From: Candidatus Eiseniibacteriota bacterium
Lineage (GTDB): Bacteria; ARS69
Assembly: GCA_052390515.1 (NCBI GenBank)
Contig: JBQTGV010000096.1
Location: 1-14,744, forward strand
DNA length: 14,744 nucleotides
Reading direction: 5' to 3'
Of the stretch, positions 1,389 to 14,328 are shown in pieces. How positions within the stretch are numbered: the stretch's first letter is position 1; each line of letters starts with the position of its first letter. The notes beneath the pieces were generated by a model, which searched no databases, was not told where the DNA came from, and saw only the letters and a program-made list of their open reading frames with translations. The position numbers and the translations under genes were made by a program.

Positions 1389-2525
1389 TCACTCGAACCG
1401 GAACACCCGGGCCGCCAGCGCGGTGACCGCCGCCGCCAGCGCCAGGATCACCGCCAGATGCGGCAGCGCGCTCGCGGCTCCCGCGCCGAACGTCACGAGC
1501 CGATGCATCGCGTCCATCGTGATCCCCGTCGGCAGGAACAGCTGCAGCTTCTGCATCCACTCCGGCGTGATCTCGATCGGCCACCAGCAGCCGCCGAGCG
1601 CGGCCAGCACGTTGGACGAGATGACGCCGACGGCCGCCGCCTGACCCTCGGAACGCGCCAGGCTCCCCAGCAGCACGCCGATTCCCGCGGTGAGGACCCC
1701 GTAGGCGAGCAGTACGACGATCACCATCGGTAGGTCCGCACCCCAGCGCATGCCGAAGAGCGCGCTGCCGGCACCCATGGCGAACGCGATCTGGACGACG
1801 CCCAGCGCGAACTTGCCGAGCAGCTTGCCCACCACCACCGCCAGCCGGCTCATCGGCGCCGACGCGAGCCGGCGCAGCAGCCCCTGCTCCCGCTCCACCA
1901 CCAGCATGATCGCGCCGCTCGTCGTCATCACCAGCAGGATGAACATCACCATCGTCCCAGGAATCGCCTGCTCGAATCCGGTCGGCGCGAGCTGCTTCTT
2001 GCCAGCCGACTTCACGTCCAGAGTGAGCGCCCGCGGCGTCGCGTCCAGCTCCGCGAACGCCGCCGCGAGCGTCGACTCCGGACGCTCGCGCGCCACCACG
2101 AGGTCGGCCAGCACCGCGTACACCGCCCGGCCGGCGCGCACGTTCTCGTAGCTCGCGCCCATGCCTTCGCCGCGGTGCTCGTACTCGACCTTCGTGCGCA
2201 CGCCGGCCAGCACGGAGTCGGTGAACGCCGCCGGCACCCGCAGCCGCCGCGAGAACTCCCGCTCGGGGTCATCCTGCGGACCGACGACGACGTACTCCTG
2301 CCCCTCCAGCCGCATCGCCAAGCGCTCCGCAAGCAGCCCGGCCGTCGAATCCGCGTCCACCACGATCCGCGTCGGTGACGTCCCGCCCGAGCCGAATCCG
2401 CCGGTGATCGTCCCGATGAAGAAGAAGAACACGATCGGCATGACGAAGACCCAGAGAAGCGTCTCGCGCCGGCGCAGCATGTACTGTACGTCCTTCCCGG
2501 CGACGAAGAGCGCGGCGCGCAGCAC
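1389..2525 (-). CDS. ABC-2 type exporter permease (ABC2_membrane_3-like)
   Basis: Likely GTG start at 2525, 5 nt after the upstream stop (MLRAALFVAGKDVQYMLRRRETLLWVFVMP). One TM helix, a large soluble loop, then EREQGLLRRLASAP, GKLLG and LGGCWWPIEITPEWMQKL, typical of ABC-2 permeases. Confidence 0.92.
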   Translation of the reverse strand: MLRAALFVAGKDVQYMLRRRETLLWVFVMPIVFFFFIGTITGGFGSGGTSPTRIVVDADSTAGLLAERLAMRLEGQEYVVVGPQDDPEREFSRRLRVPAAFTDSVLAGVRTKVEYEHRGEGMGASYENVRAGRAVYAVLADLVVARERPESTLAAAFAELDATPRALTLDVKSAGKKQLAPTGFEQAIPGTMVMFILLVMTTSGAIMLVVEREQGLLRRLASAPMSRLAVVVGKLLGKFALGVVQIAFAMGAGSALFGMRWGADLPMVIVVLLAYGVLTAGIGVLLGSLARSEGQAAAVGVISSNVLAALGGCWWPIEITPEWMQKLQLFLPTGITMDAMHRLVTFGAGAASALPHLAVILALAAAVTALAARVFRFE

Positions 2526-2530
2526 GTCGG

Positions 2531-3778
2531 TCAGCCCCTGGCGAAGTCGTGGAGACGCCGTACGCTCCACAGGAAGAGGACACCGCCCACGGCGAAGAGC
2601 CCGGCAAGAGCGACGAGGAACGACGATGCCACCATCTCGCCCTCGAGAATCGCCTGGAGCTGCGCCAGCGCCCATCCGTTCGGGGTGAGCTTCCCGACGG
2701 CCGCCATGCCCTCGGGCATGATCTCGAAGGGGAAGAAGTTCCCGCCCACCATGAGCAGGGGGAACACGAGGGCCATGGCGAGGACGCCGGCGGTCCGCTC
2801 GCTGGAGGCGTGCAGCATGATCACGAGCAGGATGGTGATCAGCACGACGCCGGAGAACGTCGCCCAGAGGACGGCGAGCGGGAAGCGAGCAGCCGGCAGC
2901 CCGAAGTAGGCCCACGCTACGCCCAGCGCCACCACGACCACGCCGAGCATCAGCCCCGCACCCGCGATCAGCTTGCCGGCCAGGAACTCGGAGATCGACC
3001 TGGGCGAGACGACGACGCGACGGAGCGTGCGCCGGTTGCGCTCGCGCCAGAAGTCCTGCGCCAGCCCCTGCGCCATGAACACCAGCGCCATGAACAGGAG
3101 CCCCGGCACGAAGAGCTGCGCTGTGGACGCGGTCGCCTCGGTCTCCCCCTCGGACTCCTCGCCGGTGGTCACCTCCAGCTCGATCACCGGCGGAAAGAGC
3201 AGGTCACCGAGCCGCTCCATCGTCTGATTGATCCGCGTGCTGAACGCCGCGATGCGCTCGTCGGGGAACGTCGTGGCGCCCTCCGGCGGCCCTTCCGCGA
3301 ACGCACGCAGATCCTCCCCGATGAGGCGGTGCAGGTAGAACGTCGCGTCGGTGAGCAGGGACAGCGCTTCCTCCACGATGTCGGGAAGGATGCGCTGCGC
3401 GGGGTTCTTGACCAGCTCGAGCGCGGCCGGGTCCTCCCGCAGGACGGCCTCGGAGAAACCCGTGGGGATGACGAGGAGCGCGGAGACTTCGCCCTTCTCG
3501 ATGCGGCGGCGACCCTCCTCCTCGGTGACCGACTCTGCCGTGAGGAAGCTGCCGGCGGCGTCCTGGCTCAGCGCGCCGACGAGGAAGTTCGAGAGGAACG
3601 TGTCGTCGAGGTCGGCGACGAGCACGTGCGCCTTCGGCTCGGGACCTTCGCGGCCGCCGAACGCCAGCGTCATCAAGAGCCCCACGATGAGCGGCAGCCC
3701 GATCCACAGCAGGAGCGAAACGGGATCACGGAGGAGCCGCTGCCAGTCCTTCTTCGCGGTGTCCCAGGCGAAGGTCAA
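2531..3778 (-). CDS. ABC-2 type exporter permease (ABC2_membrane_3-like)
   Basis: AKKDWQRLLRDP..LLLWIGLP N-terminus, large extracytoplasmic loop, ERNRRTLRRVVVSP, GK, GGNFFPFEIMP and TPNGWA motifs. The TTG start is uncertain. Confidence 0.92.
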   Translation of the reverse strand: MTFAWDTAKKDWQRLLRDPVSLLLWIGLPLIVGLLMTLAFGGREGPEPKAHVLVADLDDTFLSNFLVGALSQDAAGSFLTAESVTEEEGRRRIEKGEVSALLVIPTGFSEAVLREDPAALELVKNPAQRILPDIVEEALSLLTDATFYLHRLIGEDLRAFAEGPPEGATTFPDERIAAFSTRINQTMERLGDLLFPPVIELEVTTGEESEGETEATASTAQLFVPGLLFMALVFMAQGLAQDFWRERNRRTLRRVVVSPRSISEFLAGKLIAGAGLMLGVVVVALGVAWAYFGLPAARFPLAVLWATFSGVVLITILLVIMLHASSERTAGVLAMALVFPLLMVGGNFFPFEIMPEGMAAVGKLTPNGWALAQLQAILEGEMVASSFLVALAGLFAVGGVLFLWSVRRLHDFARG

Positions 3779-3820
3779 GGTGACCCCATTGCTTCCGCAC
3801 CGCCCCAGGCGAAGGTCAAG
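3763..3820. repeat. Perfect 17-bp direct repeat (CCCAGGCGAAGGTCAAG x2, 41-bp period)
   Basis: Copies at 3763-3779 and 3804-3820, spanning the permease start and the intergenic region after the ATPase. Confidence 0.9.
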
Positions 3821-3829
3821 ATGGACGCC

Positions 3830-4759
3830 TCACTCGCGGAGCTCCTTGCCGGTCAGCTTGATGAAGAGCGTCTCCAGGCTCGGCTGGGTGAGCGTCGTCT
3901 CCCGCACGTCCGAACCCGCAGCGGCCAGCGCCTCGAAGATGACCGGCAGCCGCGCCGACGCGCGCGACGCCGCGAGCGTCACGCCGTCCGCCTCGGCCTG
4001 CACGACTTCGACGTCGCCGAGCCGGGACACGGCGCTCGTGACCTTCGCCGGATCGAAGACGCCGGCGAGCCGCAGCAAGTCCCGCTCGCCCATGAGCGCG
4101 CGCAGCTCGGCGAGCGTTCCCGCCGCGATGATCTTTCCGTGGTCGACGATGGCGAGCTTGTCGCAGAGGGTCTCCGCCTCCTCCATATAGTGGGTCGTGT
4201 AGAGGACGCTGGTGCCCTTCGTCGTCTCCGCGCGCACCAGCTCGAGCAGTCGCACCCGGCTCTGCGGGTCCACCCCGACGGTCGGCTCGTCGAGCAGGAG
4301 CACCGCGGGCTCGTGCACGATACCGCAGGCGAAGTTGAGGCGGCGCTTCATGCCTCCGGAGAAGCGCTTCACCGCTTCCTTCGCCCGGTCGGCGAGCCCT
4401 ACCGTCTCGAGCACGGCGTCGATGCGCCGCTCGAGCCCGTCGCCGCGCAGGCCGTACGCCGCGCCCCAGTAGGCGAGGTTCTCGCGCGCGGACAGGTCCT
4501 CGTAAAGAGCGAGCTCCTGCGGGACGATGCCGAGCCGCTCGCGCGACGCGCGCGCATCGGTGACGACGTCATGACCGAGCACACTGACCCGGCCGGAGCT
4601 TGGCTTCAGCAGCCCGGAGATGCAGCCGATGGTCGTCGTCTTTCCGGCGCCGTTCGGACCGAGCAGGCCGAAGACGGCGCCCGGCTCCGCGGTGAAGCTC
4701 ACGTCGCCGACGGCGACGAGATCCCCGTACTGCTTGCGCAGGCCCTCGACTCGAATCAC
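3830..4759 (-). CDS. ABC exporter ATP-binding protein (DrrA/LnrL-like)
   Basis: Walker A GPNGAGKTT, signature FSGGMKRR, Walker B LLLDEPT, H-loop TTHYM, C-terminal PSLETLFIKLTGKELRE; GGAGG SD before the GTG. Confidence 0.96.
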   Translation of the reverse strand: MIRVEGLRKQYGDLVAVGDVSFTAEPGAVFGLLGPNGAGKTTTIGCISGLLKPSSGRVSVLGHDVVTDARASRERLGIVPQELALYEDLSARENLAYWGAAYGLRGDGLERRIDAVLETVGLADRAKEAVKRFSGGMKRRLNFACGIVHEPAVLLLDEPTVGVDPQSRVRLLELVRAETTKGTSVLYTTHYMEEAETLCDKLAIVDHGKIIAAGTLAELRALMGERDLLRLAGVFDPAKVTSAVSRLGDVEVVQAEADGVTLAASRASARLPVIFEALAAAGSDVRETTLTQPSLETLFIKLTGKELRE

Positions 4760-7204: not shown

Positions 7205-7298
7205 CGGGAAATCCCCCGCATGTCTCCAGGATACGCTACGATGCTCCGGTCGACCGCCGGTGCTGGGCCCTTCGCCCGGGAACGGCTCGAGGAGGCGA
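7205..7298. promoter_or_regulatory. Divergent promoter region
   Basis: 94-bp gap between divergent starts. TAnnnT -10-like hexamers on both strands: TACGAT (+, 7237-7242) and TATCCT (-, 7233-7228). SD GAGGAGG at 7289-7295. Confidence 0.45.
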
Positions 7299-8096
7299 AT
7301 GAACGCGATCAAGAAGAGCTCGGACGAGCGCAATCTCGCCGTCTATATCGACTTCGAGAACCTGGCGCTCGGCTTCCCGGCGGACAGTCGCACGACCTTC
7401 GACGTGCACCGCGTGCTCAACCGGCTGCTGGACAAGGGGAAGGTGATCGTGAAGGTCGCCTACGCGGACTGGAGCCGCTTCCGCAACTACACGAAGCTGC
7501 TTCACGAGGCCGGCATCGCGCTCGTGGACATTCCCAAGCGGTCCATGACCGGGAAGAACTCCGCCGACATCCGCCTCGTCGTCGACGCCATGGACCTGTC
7601 GTCTTCCAAGGAGCACATCGACACCTTCGCCATCGTTTCCGGCGACAGCGACTTCTCGCCGCTGGTGGCGAAGCTCCGCGAGAACGGGAAGTACGTGATC
7701 GGTCTGGGGATGAAGCAGTCCACGTCGAAGCTGCTCGCCGACCACTGCGACGAGTTCCTGTACTACGAGGAGCTGGAGGCGGAACGGGCTCCCCTGCCGC
7801 AGGAGGGCACGGAAAAGATCTCCGGCGAGGACAAGGAGGCCTTCGCGCTGCTTCTCGACGCCACCCGCGCGCTGCTGCGCGAGAACGACCGCGCGCTCGC
7901 CTCCCGGATCAAGGAGACGATGAAGCGCAAGAGCCCCGCGTTCACCGAGTCGGCCTACGGCTATCGCAGCTTCAGCGAGCTGCTCGAGGAAGCCCAGGAG
8001 GCCGGACTTCTCGAGCTCAAGGTGGACGAAGCCAGCGGCACGTACGTGGTCACCAAGATCACGACGACCCGGCGCCGGCGGCGACGCGGACGGTAG
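7299..8096 (+). CDS. NYN domain (LabA/DUF88, PIN-like) ribonuclease with C-terminal OST-HTH/LOTUS domain
   Basis: ATG 7299 after GAGGAGG. Acidic motifs YIDFEN, GKNSADI and VSGDSDF; OST-HTH-like KETMKRKSPAFTESAYGYRSFSELLE; Arg-rich tail. Confidence 0.93.
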   Translation: MNAIKKSSDERNLAVYIDFENLALGFPADSRTTFDVHRVLNRLLDKGKVIVKVAYADWSRFRNYTKLLHEAGIALVDIPKRSMTGKNSADIRLVVDAMDLSSSKEHIDTFAIVSGDSDFSPLVAKLRENGKYVIGLGMKQSTSKLLADHCDEFLYYEELEAERAPLPQEGTEKISGEDKEAFALLLDATRALLRENDRALASRIKETMKRKSPAFTESAYGYRSFSELLEEAQEAGLLELKVDEASGTYVVTKITTTRRRRRRGR

Positions 8097-8109
8097 CGTG
8101 GAGGTCGTG

Positions 8110-10062
8110 GTGAATCGCCTCGCCGCCGCCCCGGTCCGCGAAGTCGTCCGCATCTCGGTGGAAGGCGACCTGCTCGACCCCAGCCTGCGTCGCTGGCACT
8201 CCGCCTTCCTCCGCCGCGCGCGCGGCCTTGCGGGATCGGTGCGGGGGCGAAGCCGCGACCGGCTCGACGCGCTCGGCGAGGTGTTCTTCGAGGAGCGGTT
8301 GAAGCCGCGCCTCCTCTTCGCCGGAGTCGAGCGCGTGCGGGCCGCGCGACGCGCGGGTCGAACCCTTCTGCTGGAGAGTCACGGATCCGAGCACGTGGTG
8401 CGGCCGCTCGCGCGGCACCTGGCCGCGGATCGGATCGTTGCGCAGCGGTTCGAGTTCCGCGACGGCGTGGCCACAGGGCGAAGCCTGCCGGCGCCGGTCG
8501 AATCGGACTCGCTGCGTCTGGGAGTGCTGCCCGTGGCGACGATCGTCATGGACCGTCCGGTTCCTCCGGCCCCGCTCTCCGTCACCGCCGCGTTGGCCGA
8601 CCGGGAGATCCTGCTGCTCGGAGCCAGCGGCTTCATCGGCAAGGTCTGGCTGGCGAGCCTGCTCGAGCACCTGCCCGAGCTCGGCACGGTCCACGTGCTG
8701 CTGCGCCGTCGCGGGGCGAGGGAACCGGAGGCGCGCTTCGCCCGGATGCTCCGCGAATCGCCCGCGTTCGAAGGGCTGCGCCGCCGCGACGGACCGTCGC
8801 TCGAGGCGCTGGCCGCGCGGATCCGCGTCCACGAAGGGGACGTGCGAGAGCCGGATCTCGGGCTTCCGCCGGCCACGGCCGCACGGCTTCGCGAGACCGT
8901 GGACCTCGTCGTCAACTCGTCGGGGCTCACCGAGTTCAATCCGGATCCGAGGGATGCGCTCGCCGTCAACGTCGACGGCGTGCTGCACCTGCTCGACTTC
9001 GTCTCCCGCTCCCGGACGGCCGCGCTGCTGCACGTGTCCACGTGCTTCGCGGCGGGTTGCCGCGAAGGCCGCATCCCCGAGGAGTGTGATCCGCGCGCGA
9101 CGCCGTCGGGCCGCGCCGGGTTCGATCCGGAGAGCGAGCGGCTTCAGCTCGAGCGCACGCTGCAGGAGTACGCCTCGACCCGCACCACCCGACGCCCCGC
9201 CACCTGGGCGATCACCGAGCGCGCCCGGGAGCTCGGCTGGCCGAACATCTACACGTTCACGAAGGCCCTCGGCGAGCGTCTGATCGCGCTGCGCCGCGAG
9301 CGGGACCCGCGCCTGGCCGCCGCCATCGTGCGGCCCTCCATCGTCGAGTCGGCCGTGGCCTTCCCGATGCGCGGTTGGAACGAGGGCGTGAACACGTCGG
9401 CGCCGCTCTCGCACCTGCTGGGCACGCACTTCCGCCAGCTCCCCGTCAACGAGCGCAAGCGCCTGGACGTCGTTCCGGTGGACCTCGTGGCGCGCGGTCT
9501 CACGCTGGTGACGGCGGCGCTGCTCGAGAACCGGCATCGCCTCGTCTACCAGCTGGCCACCTCGGCGACGAACCCGCTGGACCTTCGCCGCGCCGTCGAG
9601 CTGACCTCGCTCGCGCATCGCAAGCACCATCGCTCGCGGCCGGGGTGGCGGAGCCGGATCCTCGCGCGTCTGGAGGCGGTCCCGGTCTCCCGCGAGCGCT
9701 ACGGGCGGCTCTCCGTGCCGGCGCAGCTCCGTGCCGTACGCGCGCTCAACGGAGTGCTCGCTCCCGCCGGCCGCCGCGGACCGCTGGCACGGGCCGAACG
9801 GATGCTGCAGCGAGTGAAGGAGCTGATCGACCTGTACGAGCCGTTCCTGCTGGGGCACGAACCGGTCTTCGAGGCGAACCACATCGAGGAGCTGGCCGCC
9901 GCGCTGCCGCAGGACGAGCGCGAGTCGTTCGGCTACGACGTGCGCAGCCTCGACTGGTACGACTACTGGATCGACGTGCACATCCCCGGCCTTCGCCGCT
10001 GGAGCTATCCTCTCATCGAGGGACGGCCGGTGCGGCCGGACCGCGAGCCGGCGGGACTTTGA
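8110..10062 (+). CDS. Fatty acyl-CoA reductase (male-sterility type extended SDR) with degenerate N-terminal HAD-like region
   Basis: GASGFIGK, HVSTCF, GWPNIYTFTKALGE (YxxxK), RPSIVES, GWNEG, DVVPVD and C-terminal LDWYDYWIDVHIPGLRRW. Start is GTG 8110 (GGAGG at 8100-8104) or GTG 8098. Confidence 0.88.
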   Translation: MNRLAAAPVREVVRISVEGDLLDPSLRRWHSAFLRRARGLAGSVRGRSRDRLDALGEVFFEERLKPRLLFAGVERVRAARRAGRTLLLESHGSEHVVRPLARHLAADRIVAQRFEFRDGVATGRSLPAPVESDSLRLGVLPVATIVMDRPVPPAPLSVTAALADREILLLGASGFIGKVWLASLLEHLPELGTVHVLLRRRGAREPEARFARMLRESPAFEGLRRRDGPSLEALAARIRVHEGDVREPDLGLPPATAARLRETVDLVVNSSGLTEFNPDPRDALAVNVDGVLHLLDFVSRSRTAALLHVSTCFAAGCREGRIPEECDPRATPSGRAGFDPESERLQLERTLQEYASTRTTRRPATWAITERARELGWPNIYTFTKALGERLIALRRERDPRLAAAIVRPSIVESAVAFPMRGWNEGVNTSAPLSHLLGTHFRQLPVNERKRLDVVPVDLVARGLTLVTAALLENRHRLVYQLATSATNPLDLRRAVELTSLAHRKHHRSRPGWRSRILARLEAVPVSRERYGRLSVPAQLRAVRALNGVLAPAGRRGPLARAERMLQRVKELIDLYEPFLLGHEPVFEANHIEELAAALPQDERESFGYDVRSLDWYDYWIDVHIPGLRRWSYPLIEGRPVRPDREPAGL

Positions 10063-11228
10063 TGGCCATCTTCCTGACCGGAGCCACCGGCTACCTCGGG
10101 GCCTACGTCGCGGCCGAGCTGCTCCGCGAGGGCGAGACGCTCAACCTCCTGGTGCGGGCGCAGGGCCCCCGCGACGCGGAACGTCGCCTCTGGCGCGCGC
10201 TGCAGTTCCACGCGGAGTTCGCGGACTTCGAGCGCTGCCTGCGCGAGCGCATCCACCTGTTCGAGGGCGACATCACCGCCCCGGATCTCGGGCTCGACCC
10301 CGACGCCCGCCGCCGCCTGGTGGAGACGACCGAGTCCATCGTGCACTGCGCGGCCTCGTTGAACCGTCGCTCCGAGCAGGCCTGCATCGACGGCAACGTG
10401 CGCGGCACGCTGGCGGCGCTTCGCATCGCGCGGGAGGCGGGCGAGCAGCACGCGTTCCGCCGCTTCAGCCTGGTGAGCACGGTGGCCGTCGCCGGGGAGC
10501 GGTCCCACGAGATCGTGCACGAGGACGACGCCGTCGACTGGGGCCGCCGCGACTACGACCCGTACGGACGGACCAAGAAGCTCGCCGAGCTACTGGTGCG
10601 CGATCTCCTGCCCGACGCCGCCGTCACCGTCTTCCGCCCGAGCATCGTGCTGGGCGACTCGATGCGGTCGGAGACGACGCAGTTCGACATGGTCCGGTCC
10701 TTCTCGTTCCTCGCCGACCTGCCCGCGCTGCCCATGCGCGCGACGGACCGTCTCGACATCGTTCCCGCGGACTGGGTCGCCCGCGCGATCGTGCTGCTGC
10801 ACCGGAAGCCCGAGCCGCGCCACGTCACCTACCACCTCTCCGCCGGAGCGGCCTCGCCGATGTGCCACGAGATCGCCGGGGCCGTGGCCGCGGCGGTGGA
10901 TCGCCGCCCGCCGGTCTTCGTGCCGGCGCTGGCCTGGCCGGCGGACGCTCTCGCCGCGGTCACGGAGCGTGTCGGGCCGCTCTCGGCGCGCCGCGGGGCC
11001 GCGCTCCTGCGGGTCTTCCTGCCCTACCTGACCTACGACACCGTCTTCGACAACTCGCGGGCCGTCGCGGAAGTCGGCGAGGAACCGGCGCCGTTCGTGC
11101 CCCGCTGCATCGCCCTGCTGAAGTGGGCGCGCGAAGCCGGCTTCCGCTATCCTCACGTCCCTTGGCCGGGCGAAGCGGAGCCCGACGCGACGCCCGCGCC
11201 CCGCTCCACCGGGAGCCTCGCGCAATGA
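10062..11228 (+). CDS. Extended SDR, thioester-reductase/NAD_binding_4-like oxidoreductase
   Basis: ATG overlaps the upstream stop (TGATG). IFLTGATGYLG, GDITAPDLGL, HCAA, NVRGT, VST, YGRTK (YxxxK), RPSIVLGD and DIVPAD motifs. Confidence 0.9.
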   Translation: MAIFLTGATGYLGAYVAAELLREGETLNLLVRAQGPRDAERRLWRALQFHAEFADFERCLRERIHLFEGDITAPDLGLDPDARRRLVETTESIVHCAASLNRRSEQACIDGNVRGTLAALRIAREAGEQHAFRRFSLVSTVAVAGERSHEIVHEDDAVDWGRRDYDPYGRTKKLAELLVRDLLPDAAVTVFRPSIVLGDSMRSETTQFDMVRSFSFLADLPALPMRATDRLDIVPADWVARAIVLLHRKPEPRHVTYHLSAGAASPMCHEIAGAVAAAVDRRPPVFVPALAWPADALAAVTERVGPLSARRGAALLRVFLPYLTYDTVFDNSRAVAEVGEEPAPFVPRCIALLKWAREAGFRYPHVPWPGEAEPDATPAPRSTGSLAQ

Positions 11229-12682
11229 CCGACCTGCTGCTCCAGACCTGGACCGCGCTCGCGATCGAGGCCGCGCGGCTCGGTCACGCGCGTGACCGCG
11301 CCGAGCCGTGGATGCCCGGCCGTCCGCTCCGCCTGCTCTTCGCCGGCTACAACGGAGCGCGCAACACCGGGTCCGACGTGCGCGTCGAGGAGATGCTGCG
11401 TCAGGTACATCGCGTGCTGGGAGCGGATCGCGTCGTCGCTTCGGTGCTGACGCAGGATCCGCGGCTCACGCGCGGCTACTTCGCCGGGGCCAGGCAGGTG
11501 CGTCTCCCGGACGTCTTCCCGCCTTTCCTCGCGCGGGAGGTACCGCGCCACGACGGAGTGATCGCCTGCGAGGGCTCGATGTTCAAGAGCCGCTTCGCCG
11601 ACGCGCTGACCACCATGATGGTCGGCGCTCTCGGCATCGCCGCGGCCCGGAACCGCCTGTCGGTGGGGTACGGCGCCGAGGCCGGCGAGATGTCGGCGAG
11701 CCTGCGTCGCCTGGTTCGCCGCTACTGCGGCACGTCGCTCGTGATCACGCGGAACGAGGAGTCCGCCCGGATCCTCCGTGAGCTGCGCGTCCCGACCGAG
11801 CCGGGCGCGGATACGGCCTGGACCTTCCGCCCGCATCCGAGCGAGCACGGCCGTCGCCTGCTCGCCGCCGCCGGATGGGATGGGACGACGGACGTGCTGG
11901 CCGTCTGCCCGATCCATCCGTTCTGGTGGCCGGTGAAGGCCGAGCCGGCGAAGTGGGCGGCGCTCGCTGCTACCGGCGCCTTCCGCGAGAGCCACTACCG
12001 CTCGCTCTACTTCCACCGCTCCGGCGCGAAGGTGACCGACGCGTTCCGCCGCTACGTGGATGCCGTGTCCGGCGCGGTGGATGCATTCCGGCGAGAGCGT
12101 CGCGTCTTCCCCGTCCTCGTCGCCATGGAGCGCCTGGACGAGGGCGCGTGCCGGCGGATCGCCGCGAAGCTCGGCGGCGCCCCCGTGTTCAGCTCCGCCG
12201 GCCACGACATGTACGAGATCGTCTCGATCCTCCGCGAGAGCCGGATGCTGCTCTCGTCCCGCTTCCACGCCCTGGTCACGACGATGCCCGCGCTCGTGCC
12301 GGCGGTCGGCGTGACCATGGACGAACGCATCCGCAACCTGATGAAGGACTGCGGCCGCGAGGATCTCTCGATCGAGGCGGATGAGCCGGATCTCGAGGCG
12401 CGGCTGCTCGACGCGCTGCGACGGATCCGCGCCGAGGAGGACGCGCTGCGTCCCGCCCTCGGCGGCGCCGTGGTCCGCAATCTGAAGCGAATGGCGCAGA
12501 TGGGACTGTTCCTGGAAGAGGAGGTCGCGCGGCGGTTCCCCGGGTTCGAGACGCGGCGCGGCCTCGTCCGCTGGGAGCAGTACCTCCCGGAGCTTTCGCC
12601 GGACCTGCTGAGCCTCGTGGAGCGCCACGGTGACGCCGCGGCGCCGCCGGAGCCGGTGCGCGTGGCGGAGCCGGCACGATGA
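11225..12682 (+). CDS. Polysaccharide pyruvyl transferase family protein
   Basis: ATGA overlap. GYNGARNTGSD (GYyGxxNxGD-like), ITRNEES, GADTAW and SSRFHAL match the CsaB/WcaK family pattern. Confidence 0.82.
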   Translation: MTDLLLQTWTALAIEAARLGHARDRAEPWMPGRPLRLLFAGYNGARNTGSDVRVEEMLRQVHRVLGADRVVASVLTQDPRLTRGYFAGARQVRLPDVFPPFLAREVPRHDGVIACEGSMFKSRFADALTTMMVGALGIAAARNRLSVGYGAEAGEMSASLRRLVRRYCGTSLVITRNEESARILRELRVPTEPGADTAWTFRPHPSEHGRRLLAAAGWDGTTDVLAVCPIHPFWWPVKAEPAKWAALAATGAFRESHYRSLYFHRSGAKVTDAFRRYVDAVSGAVDAFRRERRVFPVLVAMERLDEGACRRIAAKLGGAPVFSSAGHDMYEIVSILRESRMLLSSRFHALVTTMPALVPAVGVTMDERIRNLMKDCGREDLSIEADEPDLEARLLDALRRIRAEEDALRPALGGAVVRNLKRMAQMGLFLEEEVARRFPGFETRRGLVRWEQYLPELSPDLLSLVERHGDAAAPPEPVRVAEPAR

Positions 12683-14328
12683 GCTTCCTCCGGCGGATCC
12701 TGGACCGCTTCGATTCCGAGCCCGAGCACCCTTTCCTGCAGACCGCGCGGGACGGGACGCTCGCCGCCACGACGGGCGCGGATCTTCTCGCCGCGGTGGA
12801 CCGCGTCCGCGATCTCGCGCGTGCCGCCGGTCTCGCGCGGGGAGATCGCTGCGCGCTGCTCGCGGCCAACTCCGCGGAGTGGGTCGCGGTCGATCTCGGG
12901 CTGCTCGCCGAGGGCGTCGTCGTCGTGCCGCTCTGGTCGCGGCAGACTCCCGGTGAGCTGGCGCGCATCCTCCGCGACTGCTCGCCCAAGCTGCTCCTTT
13001 GCGACGACGACGTGGCCGAGGCGCTGCGCCGGGAAATGCCGGACCTGCCTCCGGTGCACCGGCCGGCCGAGGCTTTCGGCTCTCCCGCCACCGCGCGGCG
13101 CGCGCCCATCCTGGTGGGCCCGCACGATCCGGTCGCGGTGATCTACACCTCGGGCACCTCCGGCGAGCCCAAGGGCGCGGTGATCTCGCGCGGGAACGTG
13201 GACTTCCTGCTGGACCGCACCGGCGAACGTCTCGACCTGCTCATGGAGGGGTGCCCGGAGCGAGAACGCGTGCTCTGCTACCTGCCGTGGTGCTTCGCCG
13301 GCGCCTGGATCGCCCTGCTCGCCGGCCTTCGCCGCGGCAGCGTGCTCACCATCAACACCGATCCTTCACGCATTCCCGACGACGCGAAGATGATCCGACC
13401 GCACTGGTTCCAGAACGTGCCGCTCGTGCTCGAGCGGATGCGCGAGGGCGTGGAGCGGGCGATGTCGCGGAAGGGCCTGGTCTTCGCCTCGCTCTTCACC
13501 GGGGCGATGCGTGCGGTGCACGACTCGGCCGAGGGGCGCCGGACCTCACGCCCGGACGCGGCGAAGCTGGCCGTGGCCCGCCGGCTGCTGTTCCCCGCCA
13601 TCCGCAAGCGTCTCGGCCGTGACCTCCGCGCGCTCGTGTGCGGTTCCGCGCCGCTCGACGCGCGGACGCAGCGCTTCTTCGAGACGCTGGGCCTGCCGGT
13701 CCTTCAAGTGTACGGCCTCACCGAGACGACGGCCGTCTGCACCATGGACGTCCCCGGCGACGCGAAGCCGGGGACCGTCGGGCGTCCGATCGCCGGCGTC
13801 GAGATGCGCTCCGACGACGACGGCGAGATCCTGGTGCGCGGGCCGAACGTCTTCGAGGGGTACTGGAACCGGCCGGAAGCGACCGCGCGGGTCTTCACCG
13901 ATGGATGGTTCCGTACCGGAGACCTCGGCGAGCAGGCCGACGAGGGACGCTGGCGCATCACCGGCCGAAAGAAGAGCCTCATCGTGCTCGGCTCCGGACA
14001 GAACGTGGCGCCGGAACCGATCGAGGCGGAGCTGGCCCGCCTGCTGCCCGTCGCGCAGCAGATCGTGCTGGTCGGAACGGGTCGCCCGCATCTCGCCGCG
14101 GTCCTCACCGGACCGCTCACCCGCGAGGCAGCCGAGGAGGCAGTCGCGCGAGTGAACGAGGATCTCCCCGCCCGGCAGAGGATCCGCGGCTGTCTCGTAC
14201 GCCGAGAGCCCTTCACCGTCGAGAGCGGCCTCGTCACGGCGAACGGCAAGCTGCGCCGGGACGCGATCGCGCGGGCGCTCGATTCGGAGATCGGGGAGCT
14301 CTACGCGCGCGAGGAGGTGGGCGTGTGA
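12679..14328 (+). CDS. Long-chain fatty acid-CoA ligase (AMP-dependent synthetase)
   Basis: ATGA overlap. YTSGTSGEPKG, CGSAPL, YGLTE, GWFRTGDLG, ITGRKKSLIVLGSGQNVAPEPIE and TANGKLRR motifs. Confidence 0.93.
   Translation: MSFLRRILDRFDSEPEHPFLQTARDGTLAATTGADLLAAVDRVRDLARAAGLARGDRCALLAANSAEWVAVDLGLLAEGVVVVPLWSRQTPGELARILRDCSPKLLLCDDDVAEALRREMPDLPPVHRPAEAFGSPATARRAPILVGPHDPVAVIYTSGTSGEPKGAVISRGNVDFLLDRTGERLDLLMEGCPERERVLCYLPWCFAGAWIALLAGLRRGSVLTINTDPSRIPDDAKMIRPHWFQNVPLVLERMREGVERAMSRKGLVFASLFTGAMRAVHDSAEGRRTSRPDAAKLAVARRLLFPAIRKRLGRDLRALVCGSAPLDARTQRFFETLGLPVLQVYGLTETTAVCTMDVPGDAKPGTVGRPIAGVEMRSDDDGEILVRGPNVFEGYWNRPEATARVFTDGWFRTGDLGEQADEGRWRITGRKKSLIVLGSGQNVAPEPIEAELARLLPVAQQIVLVGTGRPHLAAVLTGPLTREAAEEAVARVNEDLPARQRIRGCLVRREPFTVESGLVTANGKLRRDAIARALDSEIGELYAREEVGV

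Follow-up and report, generated by a model that had tools for sequence, protein, structure and literature searches.

A pyruvyl-transferase-superfamily gene in a conserved fatty-acyl operon of a Candidatus Eiseniibacteriota bacterium, a candidate for ether-lipid formation

The sequence analysed here (the window) is the complete 14.7 kb contig JBQTGV010000096.1 (G000:C96; 14,744 bp, 72% G+C) of a Candidatus Eiseniibacteriota bacterium, whose genome assembly (G000) has 4.27 Mb and is 95% complete. Five genes with overlapping consecutive stops and starts run on the forward strand from position 8098 to the contig end (Table 1). The third of them, hereafter the transferase, encodes a pyruvyl-transferase-superfamily protein and is the subject of this report. 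It is preceded by a fusion of a HAD-like domain with a fatty acyl reductase (FAR; the fusion is called HAD-FAR) and by a stand-alone SDR of the thioester reductase type, and followed by an acyl-CoA ligase (ligase 1) and an enoyl-CoA hydratase. The SDR matched the NCBIfam thioester reductase domain TIGR01746 with 137 bits (E 8e-40), below the cut-off of 213, and the best NCBIfam model for ligase 1 was the FadD11 ligase (205 bits, below its cut-off).

An initial annotation, made from the letters of the window alone, had stated that the transferase gene overlaps both the SDR and the ligase gene, and the sequence ATGA was indeed found at both junctions (11225-11228 and 12679-12682). HAD-FAR and the SDR are joined by TGATG at 10060-10064, where the ATG of the SDR overlaps the upstream stop; the 4-base overlap of ligase 1 and the hydratase (14325-14328) is taken from the coordinates of the open reading frames (ORFs) only. 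The hydratase continues on contig G000:C63, which begins about three residues past the window end and whose bases 3-398 match ECH_1 positions 124-246. GGGFELAL and PELRLG, the two crotonase catalytic-Glu motifs, are both present. Behind the rest of the hydratase, C63 carries an acyl carrier protein (ACP) and a second AMP-ligase (ligase 2), followed by a histidine kinase in convergent orientation. The ORFs scanned in the window gave no domain of a glycosyltransferase, a flippase or a nucleotide-sugar enzyme, which agrees with the initial annotation, and the continuing contig has no sugar gene and no glycosyltransferase directly downstream. Pfam scans of the window and the analysis of conserved neighbours revealed no acyl-CoA dehydrogenase or oxidase conserved in the operon.

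Table 1. Features of the window and of loci compared with it. Positions without a locus name are those of the window.
Feature	Position	Strand	Evidence
HAD-like + fatty acyl reductase (HAD-FAR), 654 aa	8098..10062	+	Pfam NAD_binding_4 1e-46, Sterile 5.7e-11, HAD 2.3e-8
Stand-alone thioester-reductase-type SDR, 388 aa	10062..11228	+	Pfam NAD_binding_4 1.4e-44
Pyruvyl-transferase-superfamily protein (transferase), 485 aa	11225..12682	+	CsaB model, Pfam PF04230, AlphaFold2 model
Long-chain-type acyl-CoA ligase (ligase 1), 549 aa	12679..14328	+	Pfam AMP-binding 3.9e-60, AMP-binding_C_3 1.2e-7
Crotonase-type enoyl-CoA hydratase, N-terminal 140 aa, cut by contig end	14325..14744	+	Pfam ECH_1 1.1e-19, model positions 5-120
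Tes homologue upstream of the operon	L036:4062-6281; also L020, L037, L042, L052, L055, L061, L063, L066, L068, L071, L073, L080		
ElbC of an elb cluster	L114:2474-4084		NF052592
Reduced second operon copy, one Myxococcota genome	L105 (G187:C21:166000-185263)		
Transferase gene standing alone	L018:10001-11407		
Thioredoxin-like, VKOR and esterase genes, example	L055:17029-18780		
ABC-2 transporter	1389-4759	-	
Type I phosphodiesterase / nucleotide pyrophosphatase + EEP fusion, 845 aa	4796-7333	-	
NYN ribonuclease-like + OST-HTH/LOTUS gene	7296-8096	+	

The start of the transferase was placed at 11225 instead of the earlier GTG at 10862, on the basis of a conserved N-terminus, M-T/S-D-L, in 27 aligned homologues. 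Against the CsaB model TIGR03609 the protein scored 64.9 bits (E 7.3e-18), its residues 37-380 matching model positions 2-293 of 301. Judged by sequence, it is homologous to CsaB yet no CsaB orthologue. A precomputed match to Pfam PF04230 (PS_pyruv_trans) exists for 112 of the 120 closest database homologues (58-100% identity), and the relatives P0173, P0132 and P0244 scored 58.4, 48.8 and 42.7 bits against this family. Through the comparison of the 27-member family profile with Escherichia coli WcaK by hhalign (probability 66%, E 5.7e-5, 316 columns), we found the motifs in register: ACEGSMFK with QVGGSFFV, TRNEES with LRESVS, GTDTAW with GVDTAW, SSRFHA with GTRLHS, and DER with EHK. The only profile families matching the transferase were pyruvyl transferases; at E <= 0.01 none of the glycosyltransferase families of Pfam matched, and the Pfam scan gave no EPSP_synthase match. 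On this evidence the transferase is a distant branch of the polysaccharide pyruvyl transferase superfamily, with membership at the superfamily level, and in this sense the CsaB/WcaK-like family call of the initial annotation is borne out. The family is large: one search gave more than 7000 matches, a profile search gave 3365, and clustering at 50% identity (E <= 1e-30) led to 298 groups. It is also unusually conserved, with close homologues at 50-88% identity and 50-67% between phyla.

According to the cited part of PMC10435577, mutagenesis and docking of CsaB identified R148, R306, H308 and K328, equal to R217, R337, H339 and K361 of Pvg1p, as binders of phosphoenolpyruvate (PEP). R176, R346, H348 and R368 of the transferase, invariant in 27/27 sequences, correspond to these residues, with the Lys replaced by Arg at R368. 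They align with the WcaK motifs LRESVS, TRLHS and EHK, and the link from the WcaK motifs to CsaB numbering was drawn from spacing, the His to Lys/Arg distance being 20 residues in both. The AlphaFold2 model of the transferase (pLDDT 87.6, pTM 0.88) predicts a GT-B-like, two-Rossmann fold with an N-terminal helix and C-terminal helices. The transferase also has a cluster of invariant aromatic residues (W199, F201, W218, F233-W235, Y262-F263). Likeness to yeast Pvg1p (5ax7_B) was seen only by VIA-align over representative chains (Z 16.6, root-mean-square deviation 3.7 Å, 256 residues, model range 32-405), where many GT-B chains scored Z 15-20; Foldseek against the Protein Data Bank gave generic GT-B enzymes only, and 5ax7 was not among the matches listed. 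The comparison with known pyruvyl transferases proposed in the initial annotation gave, in short, a Pvg1p-like but non-specific fold with the PEP-binding positions conserved. The predicted fold agrees with the pyruvyl-transferase family and proves no membership.

A GT-B enzyme that no longer uses PEP, and that modifies a fatty alcohol or lipid with another donor (nucleotide sugar, CDP-glycerol, acyl or phosphoryl), would suit the structural ranking, in which the best matches are nucleotide-sugar enzymes placed above Pvg1p (4nes Z 20.3, PimA 2gej Z 19.8, BshA Z 19.5), and would also suit a PF04230 score below threshold. The four invariant PEP-site residues, the profile matches confined to pyruvyl transferases, the relatives that reach 58 bits on PF04230 and the unmatched glycosyltransferase families speak against such an enzyme, and we regard it as improbable. 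PEP is the likely donor.

For the comparison of gene order we used 80 loci from species-representative genomes together with 6 Myxococcota loci, and the denominators are the loci with enough flanking sequence. The 80 loci are mostly from Terriglobia and other Acidobacteriota; the labels Planctomycetota, Verrucomicrobiia, Gemmatimonadota, Sandaracinaceae and Blastocatellia also occur. Strand and order relative to the transferase were kept by HAD-FAR upstream (67/69 loci), the thioester reductase SDR (72/74), ligase 1 (68/71), the hydratase (68/69) and ligase 2 (59/64), and a small ACP gene with a DSL motif is located between the hydratase and ligase 2. The order is HAD-FAR, thioester reductase, transferase, ligase 1, hydratase, ACP and ligase 2, often then a lipid kinase and an acyltransferase; it was the same in the six additional loci, all Myxococcota, and spans at least five phylum-level labels, among them Acidobacteriota, Myxococcota, Planctomycetota, Verrucomicrobiota and the small phylum of the window itself. 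Clustering of ORFs revealed a YegS-type lipid kinase downstream in 58 of the 86 loci, a PlsC-type acyltransferase in 30 and a CDP-alcohol phosphatidyltransferase in 21. Kinase and acyltransferase follow the operon in most Acidobacteriota and some Myxococcota loci. Among the conserved neighbours, GT87 was the sole family of glycosyltransferases, seen in 10/86 loci, about 9 kb off and on the opposite strand. The initial annotation had set the gene apart from polysaccharide loci, and its close homologues are located outside such loci, in the same fatty-acyl operon.

Annotation pipelines name the relatives "polysaccharide pyruvyl transferase WcaK-like", as would be expected of an ordinary polysaccharide pyruvyl transferase standing beside lipid genes by chance. 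Such an enzyme is hard to reconcile with a gene order kept in nearly all informative loci under at least five phylum-level labels and at 50-67% identity. There are also no sugar genes nearby, and a six-frame search of the whole genome G000 with PF04230 gave no match at E <= 0.01, so there is no second PF04230 gene. We consider chance neighbourhood extremely improbable and close to refuted. The acceptor of the transferase is very probably a lipid.

P0173, a metagenome protein of 967 aa from a low-GC organism, unites the transferase and an AMP-binding enzyme of the ligase-1 type in one natural fusion with a continuous linker. Exceptions to the conserved order are L018, with the transferase alone, and L062, where the upstream genes are missing; L004 and L029 had no ligase-1 match at the required coverage. 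L018 is the sole locus of the 80 without any operon gene, and the neighbours of the transferase there are an AAA_14/DUF4143 gene and ORFs without Pfam match, the longest of 2203 aa. One Myxococcota genome contains a second, reduced operon copy (L105), which keeps reductase, transferase, hydratase, ACP and one ligase and is without the stand-alone thioester reductase and ligase 1. In P0132 a Sterile-domain fragment is located ahead of the transferase. The operon is conserved where present and patchy across genomes. No printed description of it was found: among the literature matches listed, no paper joined a pyruvyl transferase with ether-lipid or fatty-alcohol terms, and the word "pyruvyl" is absent from the sponge elb preprint.

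The nearest described system is the ether-lipid operon elb of Myxococcus xanthus. In the cited part of the review PMC9131029, which covers Lorenzen et al. 2014, ElbB is a HAD protein, ElbC is of unknown function, ElbD combines FAR-like, acyl-CoA synthetase (ACS), ACP and AGPAT domains, ElbE belongs to the NAD epimerase family, and the ether-bond-forming step is given as unresolved. A search of 201 Myxococcota genomes with ligase 2 revealed the orthologues of the transferase operon and 59 weaker matches in open frames of about 1300-2400 aa; six of these 59 ElbD-like loci were compared, and one (L114) was annotated with Pfam and NCBIfam. L114 is a true elb cluster, composed of a HAD protein with DVDGT, a LarA-family protein, a 1574-aa ElbD (NAD_binding_4, Sterile, AMP-binding, PP-binding and Acyltransferase) and an Epimerase-type SDR. 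Its ElbC matched the NPN-dependent hydroxyacid isomerase equivalog NF052592 (LarAH14/15/16 family) with 791 bits, above the cut-off of 740, which hints that the elb pathway, too, may handle a 2-hydroxy acid. By tblastn a LarA-like ElbC was found in 5/6 elb loci versus 0/87 transferase loci and the window, and no NF052592 match or LarA-type gene was found in the 95% complete genome G000. ElbC was also considered as being the transferase itself, and this was ruled out: ElbC is a LarA-family protein, and the transferase matched nothing in the six elb loci by tblastn.

Both systems have a HAD-like domain, a FAR-type reductase with Sterile domain, an adenylation enzyme, an ACP, a PlsC-type acyltransferase and an SDR, the similarity to ElbE being weak. 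HAD-FAR is homologous to ElbB (HAD part, 33-37% identity by tblastn) together with the N-terminal reductase of ElbD (32-35%). Ligase 2 is 31-40% and ligase 1 25-32% identical to the ElbD adenylation domain, so that ligase 2, not ligase 1, is the nearer relative, and the transferase, ligase 1 and the hydratase are the parts added relative to elb. The domains united in one ElbD protein of about 1570 aa are separate genes here, and the place of the LarA-like ElbC is taken by the transferase, ligase 1 and the hydratase. The ElbB of L114 has an intact DVDGT, whereas the fused HAD-like domain is degenerate: its motif I reads SVEGD in the window (8098-8600) and RVEGS in Acidobacteria, and both the nucleophile Asp of motif I and the C-terminal half are missing in 8/8 sequences. 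The domain is probably what is left of an ElbB-like gene, without catalytic function. An ElbD-like match in a long open frame occurs in 1/20 transferase-positive Myxococcota genomes (G077) versus 58/181 negatives; because the long-frame criterion is a rough one where DNA is rich in GC, and related genomes do not count as independent, this near-exclusivity of elb and transferase is a hint only. From these comparisons the operon is related to elb and not identical with it, the fatty-alcohol and acylation parts being common and the cassette different.

The conserved genes can be read as a core module of transferase, ligase 1, enoyl-CoA hydratase and thioester reductase, joined to an elb-like fatty-alcohol module of ligase 2, ACP and fatty acyl reductase and, in many genomes, to a lipid kinase and a PlsC-type acyltransferase. 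We tentatively suggest that the transferase is a PEP-dependent enzyme that acts on lipids and not on polysaccharide, and that an enol-ether route to alkylglycerol is the best explanation of the operon; we infer all chemical steps of this route. Ligase 2 would load a fatty acid onto the ACP, and the FAR domain would reduce it to the fatty alcohol. The transferase would then add this alcohol to C2 of PEP with expulsion of phosphate, and the product, an enolpyruvyl ether (2-alkoxyacrylate), would stay as such because a mono-alcohol offers no second hydroxyl for ketal closure. Ligase 1 would make the CoA thioester of the 2-alkoxyacrylate, and the hydratase would add water at the terminal methylene to give 2-O-alkylglyceroyl-CoA; crotonases are known to hydrate methacrylyl-CoA, also a 2-substituted acrylyl-CoA, at the methylene. 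The thioester reductase would reduce the 2-O-alkylglyceroyl thioester to alkylglycerol, which the kinase and acyltransferase, where present, would convert into an ether analogue of phosphatidic acid.

The coupling of the transferase with ligase 1, the fusion in P0173 and the role of ligase 2 as ElbD-like loader together suggest that the transferase yields a carboxylate which later steps treat as a thioester. Pyruvyl transfer from PEP would introduce just such a group, and the fusion fits a ligase acting on a carboxylate installed by the transferase. The enol-ether route leaves none of the conserved genes without a task and can do without the acyl-CoA dehydrogenase that is missing from the operon, and alkylglycerol would suit the lipid kinase and acyltransferase that follow as a substrate. 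Taken as a whole, from enol ether to alkylglycerol, the route must be called doubtful. The inference of the initial annotation, that a fatty alcohol or diol is linked to a PEP-derived C3 unit, fits the anatomy of the operon and is partly supported; it is the reading we prefer.

The operon could instead serve to make a ketal. The hydratase and the reductases would then produce an alkane-1,3-diol, via a 3-hydroxyacyl thioester, or a 1,2-diol, on which the transferase would close a pyruvate ketal; the resulting 1,3-dioxane or dioxolane carboxylate would be an anionic, glycerol-free lipid head, which ligase 1 may activate further. Ketal formation is the normal chemistry of the family, and a 4,6-ketal on a hexose is itself a 1,3-dioxane on a 1,3-diol. 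The hydratase and the two reductases of the operon could make the diol, and the minimal locus L105 fits this scheme too. A precedent is DxpH, which according to the cited part of PMC12964715 uses PEP in vitro to form a ketal on the diol of a lipid chain. The scheme would need an enoyl thioester from outside, as the conserved genes of the operon include neither an acyl-CoA dehydrogenase nor an oxidase. The coupling and fusion of transferase and ligase are left without a role unless the ketal carboxylate is activated, and in that branch the hydratase is idle; nor does the ketal offer the conserved lipid kinase and acyltransferase a free hydroxyl. We consider ketal formation on a lipid 1,3- or 1,2-diol rather unlikely, though it is the strongest rival to the enol-ether route, and the enzyme without PEP, the chance neighbour and the tailoring of a head group are all less likely than it.

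In the last case, in which the acceptor would be of the lipid head-group kind that the initial annotation had also named, the other operon genes would supply lipid only, and the transferase would pyruvylate a glycerolipid diol (monoalkyl- or monoacylglycerol, or the head of phosphatidylglycerol) or a lipid-linked sugar made elsewhere. Known members act on lipid-linked saccharides, for example the undecaprenyl-PP-bound substrate of CsaB (cited part of PMC10435577), and the operon often ends in phospholipid genes. The transferase gene, on the other hand, stands in the middle of the operon, with translational coupling to both neighbours and, in P0173, a fusion to ligase 1, which places the enzyme within the carboxylate/thioester chain and not at its end; no conserved sugar-handling gene is nearby. 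Head-group tailoring seems improbable to us.

Several points weigh against the PEP-dependent, lipid-acting enzyme and the enol-ether route. At the level of membership, the window protein stays far below the TIGR03609 equivalog cut-off of 213.1 bits, and with 23.7 bits (E 5.5e-5) it is 1.6 bits short of the PF04230 gathering cut-off of 25.3. The 66% hhalign probability to WcaK is modest, and sequence searches of solved structures in the Protein Data Bank with the single protein or the family profile gave chance matches only. At the active site, the essential loop-1 R207 of CsaB (R266 of Pvg1p) has no obvious invariant Arg as counterpart in approximately residues 228-265; this stretch holds instead a conserved motif, CPI-x-PFWWPV, with the invariant C228 and W235-P236-V237, and a loop modelled with low confidence. 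In the structural comparison, about 23 GT-B glycosyltransferases and UDP-GlcNAc 2-epimerases outscore Pvg1p (Z 17-20). As to the chemistry, we know of no pyruvyl-transferase family member that stops at the enol ether. Bacterial monoethers are mostly 1-O-alkyl, while the route predicts 2-O-alkylglycerol. In the lineage of the window itself, the operon is followed by neither a kinase nor an acyltransferase. The distribution is patchy (9/251 Acidobacteriota genomes, 20/201 Myxococcota and 6/10 in the window's phylum), so the operon is excluded as a route to ether lipids general to these phyla. DxpH, the one family member recorded as acting on a lipid, closes a ketal on its diol acceptor (cited part of PMC12964715).

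CsaB of Paenibacillus alvei, Pvg1p of Schizosaccharomyces pombe and WcaK of E. coli are homologous to the transferase at the superfamily level, with a GT-B-like fold and with the PEP-site Arg, Arg-x-His and Lys/Arg conserved. The transferase differs from them by about 100 extra residues (N-terminal helix and C-terminal helices) and by its location in a lipid operon without sugar genes instead of a polysaccharide locus, and its acceptor is presumably a fatty alcohol or other lipid. DxpH of Chitinimonas koreensis (dioxanopeptin biosynthesis; Chem Sci 2026), compared here by description only, converts dedioxanopeptin to dioxanopeptin with PEP in vitro in the cited part of PMC12964715; like the transferase as we read it, it acts on a lipid chain and not on a sugar, with PEP as donor. 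DxpH tailors a finished lipopeptide of a polyunsaturated fatty acid synthase-nonribosomal peptide synthetase (PUFA-NRPS) system by a ketal on a diol, whereas the transferase belongs to an operon of primary-lipid type with ligase, hydratase and reductases. The initial annotation had expected new chemistry for the family. This has to be toned down in view of DxpH and its ketal on a lipid diol; an enol-ether or ether outcome would still be new. MurA and EPSP synthase are alike only in the type of reaction proposed, in which an alcohol is added to C2 of PEP, phosphate leaves and the enol ether remains, a mechanism of enolpyruvyl transfer summarised in the cited part of PMC10435577; their fold and family are unrelated, and the analogy is one of mechanism alone.

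Other genes of the window and of the compared loci are recorded here for completeness. Upstream of the operon, the ABC-2 transporter gene adjoins a fusion of a type I phosphodiesterase / nucleotide pyrophosphatase with an endonuclease/exonuclease/phosphatase (EEP) domain, and the NYN ribonuclease-like gene with OST-HTH/LOTUS domain stops one base short of the first operon gene. By tblastn the phosphodiesterase/EEP, NYN and permease genes were found beside 0/80 other loci, and the ABC ATPase gave two weak matches only (27-30% identity, several kb off; L003 and L051). On C63, a 238-aa ORF after ligase 2 is Arg/Pro-rich without Pfam match and was rejected as probably non-coding; a 208-aa ORF at the same place in locus L012 is unrelated to it and belongs to no family. 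In Terriglobia loci, thioredoxin-like (30/86), VKOR (29/86) and esterase (25/86) genes are located on the same strand after the lipid kinase.

In 13/86 loci, all from metagenome-assembled genomes of Terriglobia, the operon is preceded on the same strand, at a distance of 0.2-4 kb, by a radical-SAM protein of about 715 aa (Radical_SAM and Zn_ribbon_HMPTM), which is directly adjacent in five of the 13. It scored 322 bits against the tetraether synthase (Tes) model NF045702, below the cut-off of 450. A Tes homologue is present in 9/9 transferase-positive Acidobacteriota genomes and, three unpublished genomes included, in 152/251 overall, so that the genome-level association of Tes and transferase is weak given relatedness.

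In the cited parts of PMC13159169, PMC10087280 and PMC9131029, the formation of the ether bond in aerobic bacteria, above all in Acidobacteria, is described as unresolved, with the Ger/PlsA route tied to anaerobes and elb known only genetically, and the brGDGT (branched glycerol dialkyl glycerol tetraether) palaeoclimate proxies depend on lipids whose biosynthetic route is still to be settled. As candidates, the cited parts of PMC10087280 and PMC13159169 weigh Tes homologues, elb and PlsAR/Ger, and the present operon goes unmentioned in them. We might speculate, with more doubt than confidence, that the operon is a de novo, glycerol-phosphate-independent ether-lipid route, in which the glycerol backbone is built from PEP on a fatty alcohol to give 2-O-alkylglycerol lipids, and that together with the Tes homologue of some Terriglobia it could supply the missing aerobic ether-bond step to brGDGT-type tetraethers. 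The operon is a concrete and testable candidate for ether-bond formation, with a soluble-looking enzyme, clear predicted intermediates and a small gene set. If the product were instead a pyruvate-ketal lipid, it would form a new class among the anionic lipids of membranes, and a family so far treated as sugar-specific would have its second lipid substrate. The name "polysaccharide pyruvyl transferase WcaK-like" is probably wrong for thousands of database entries.

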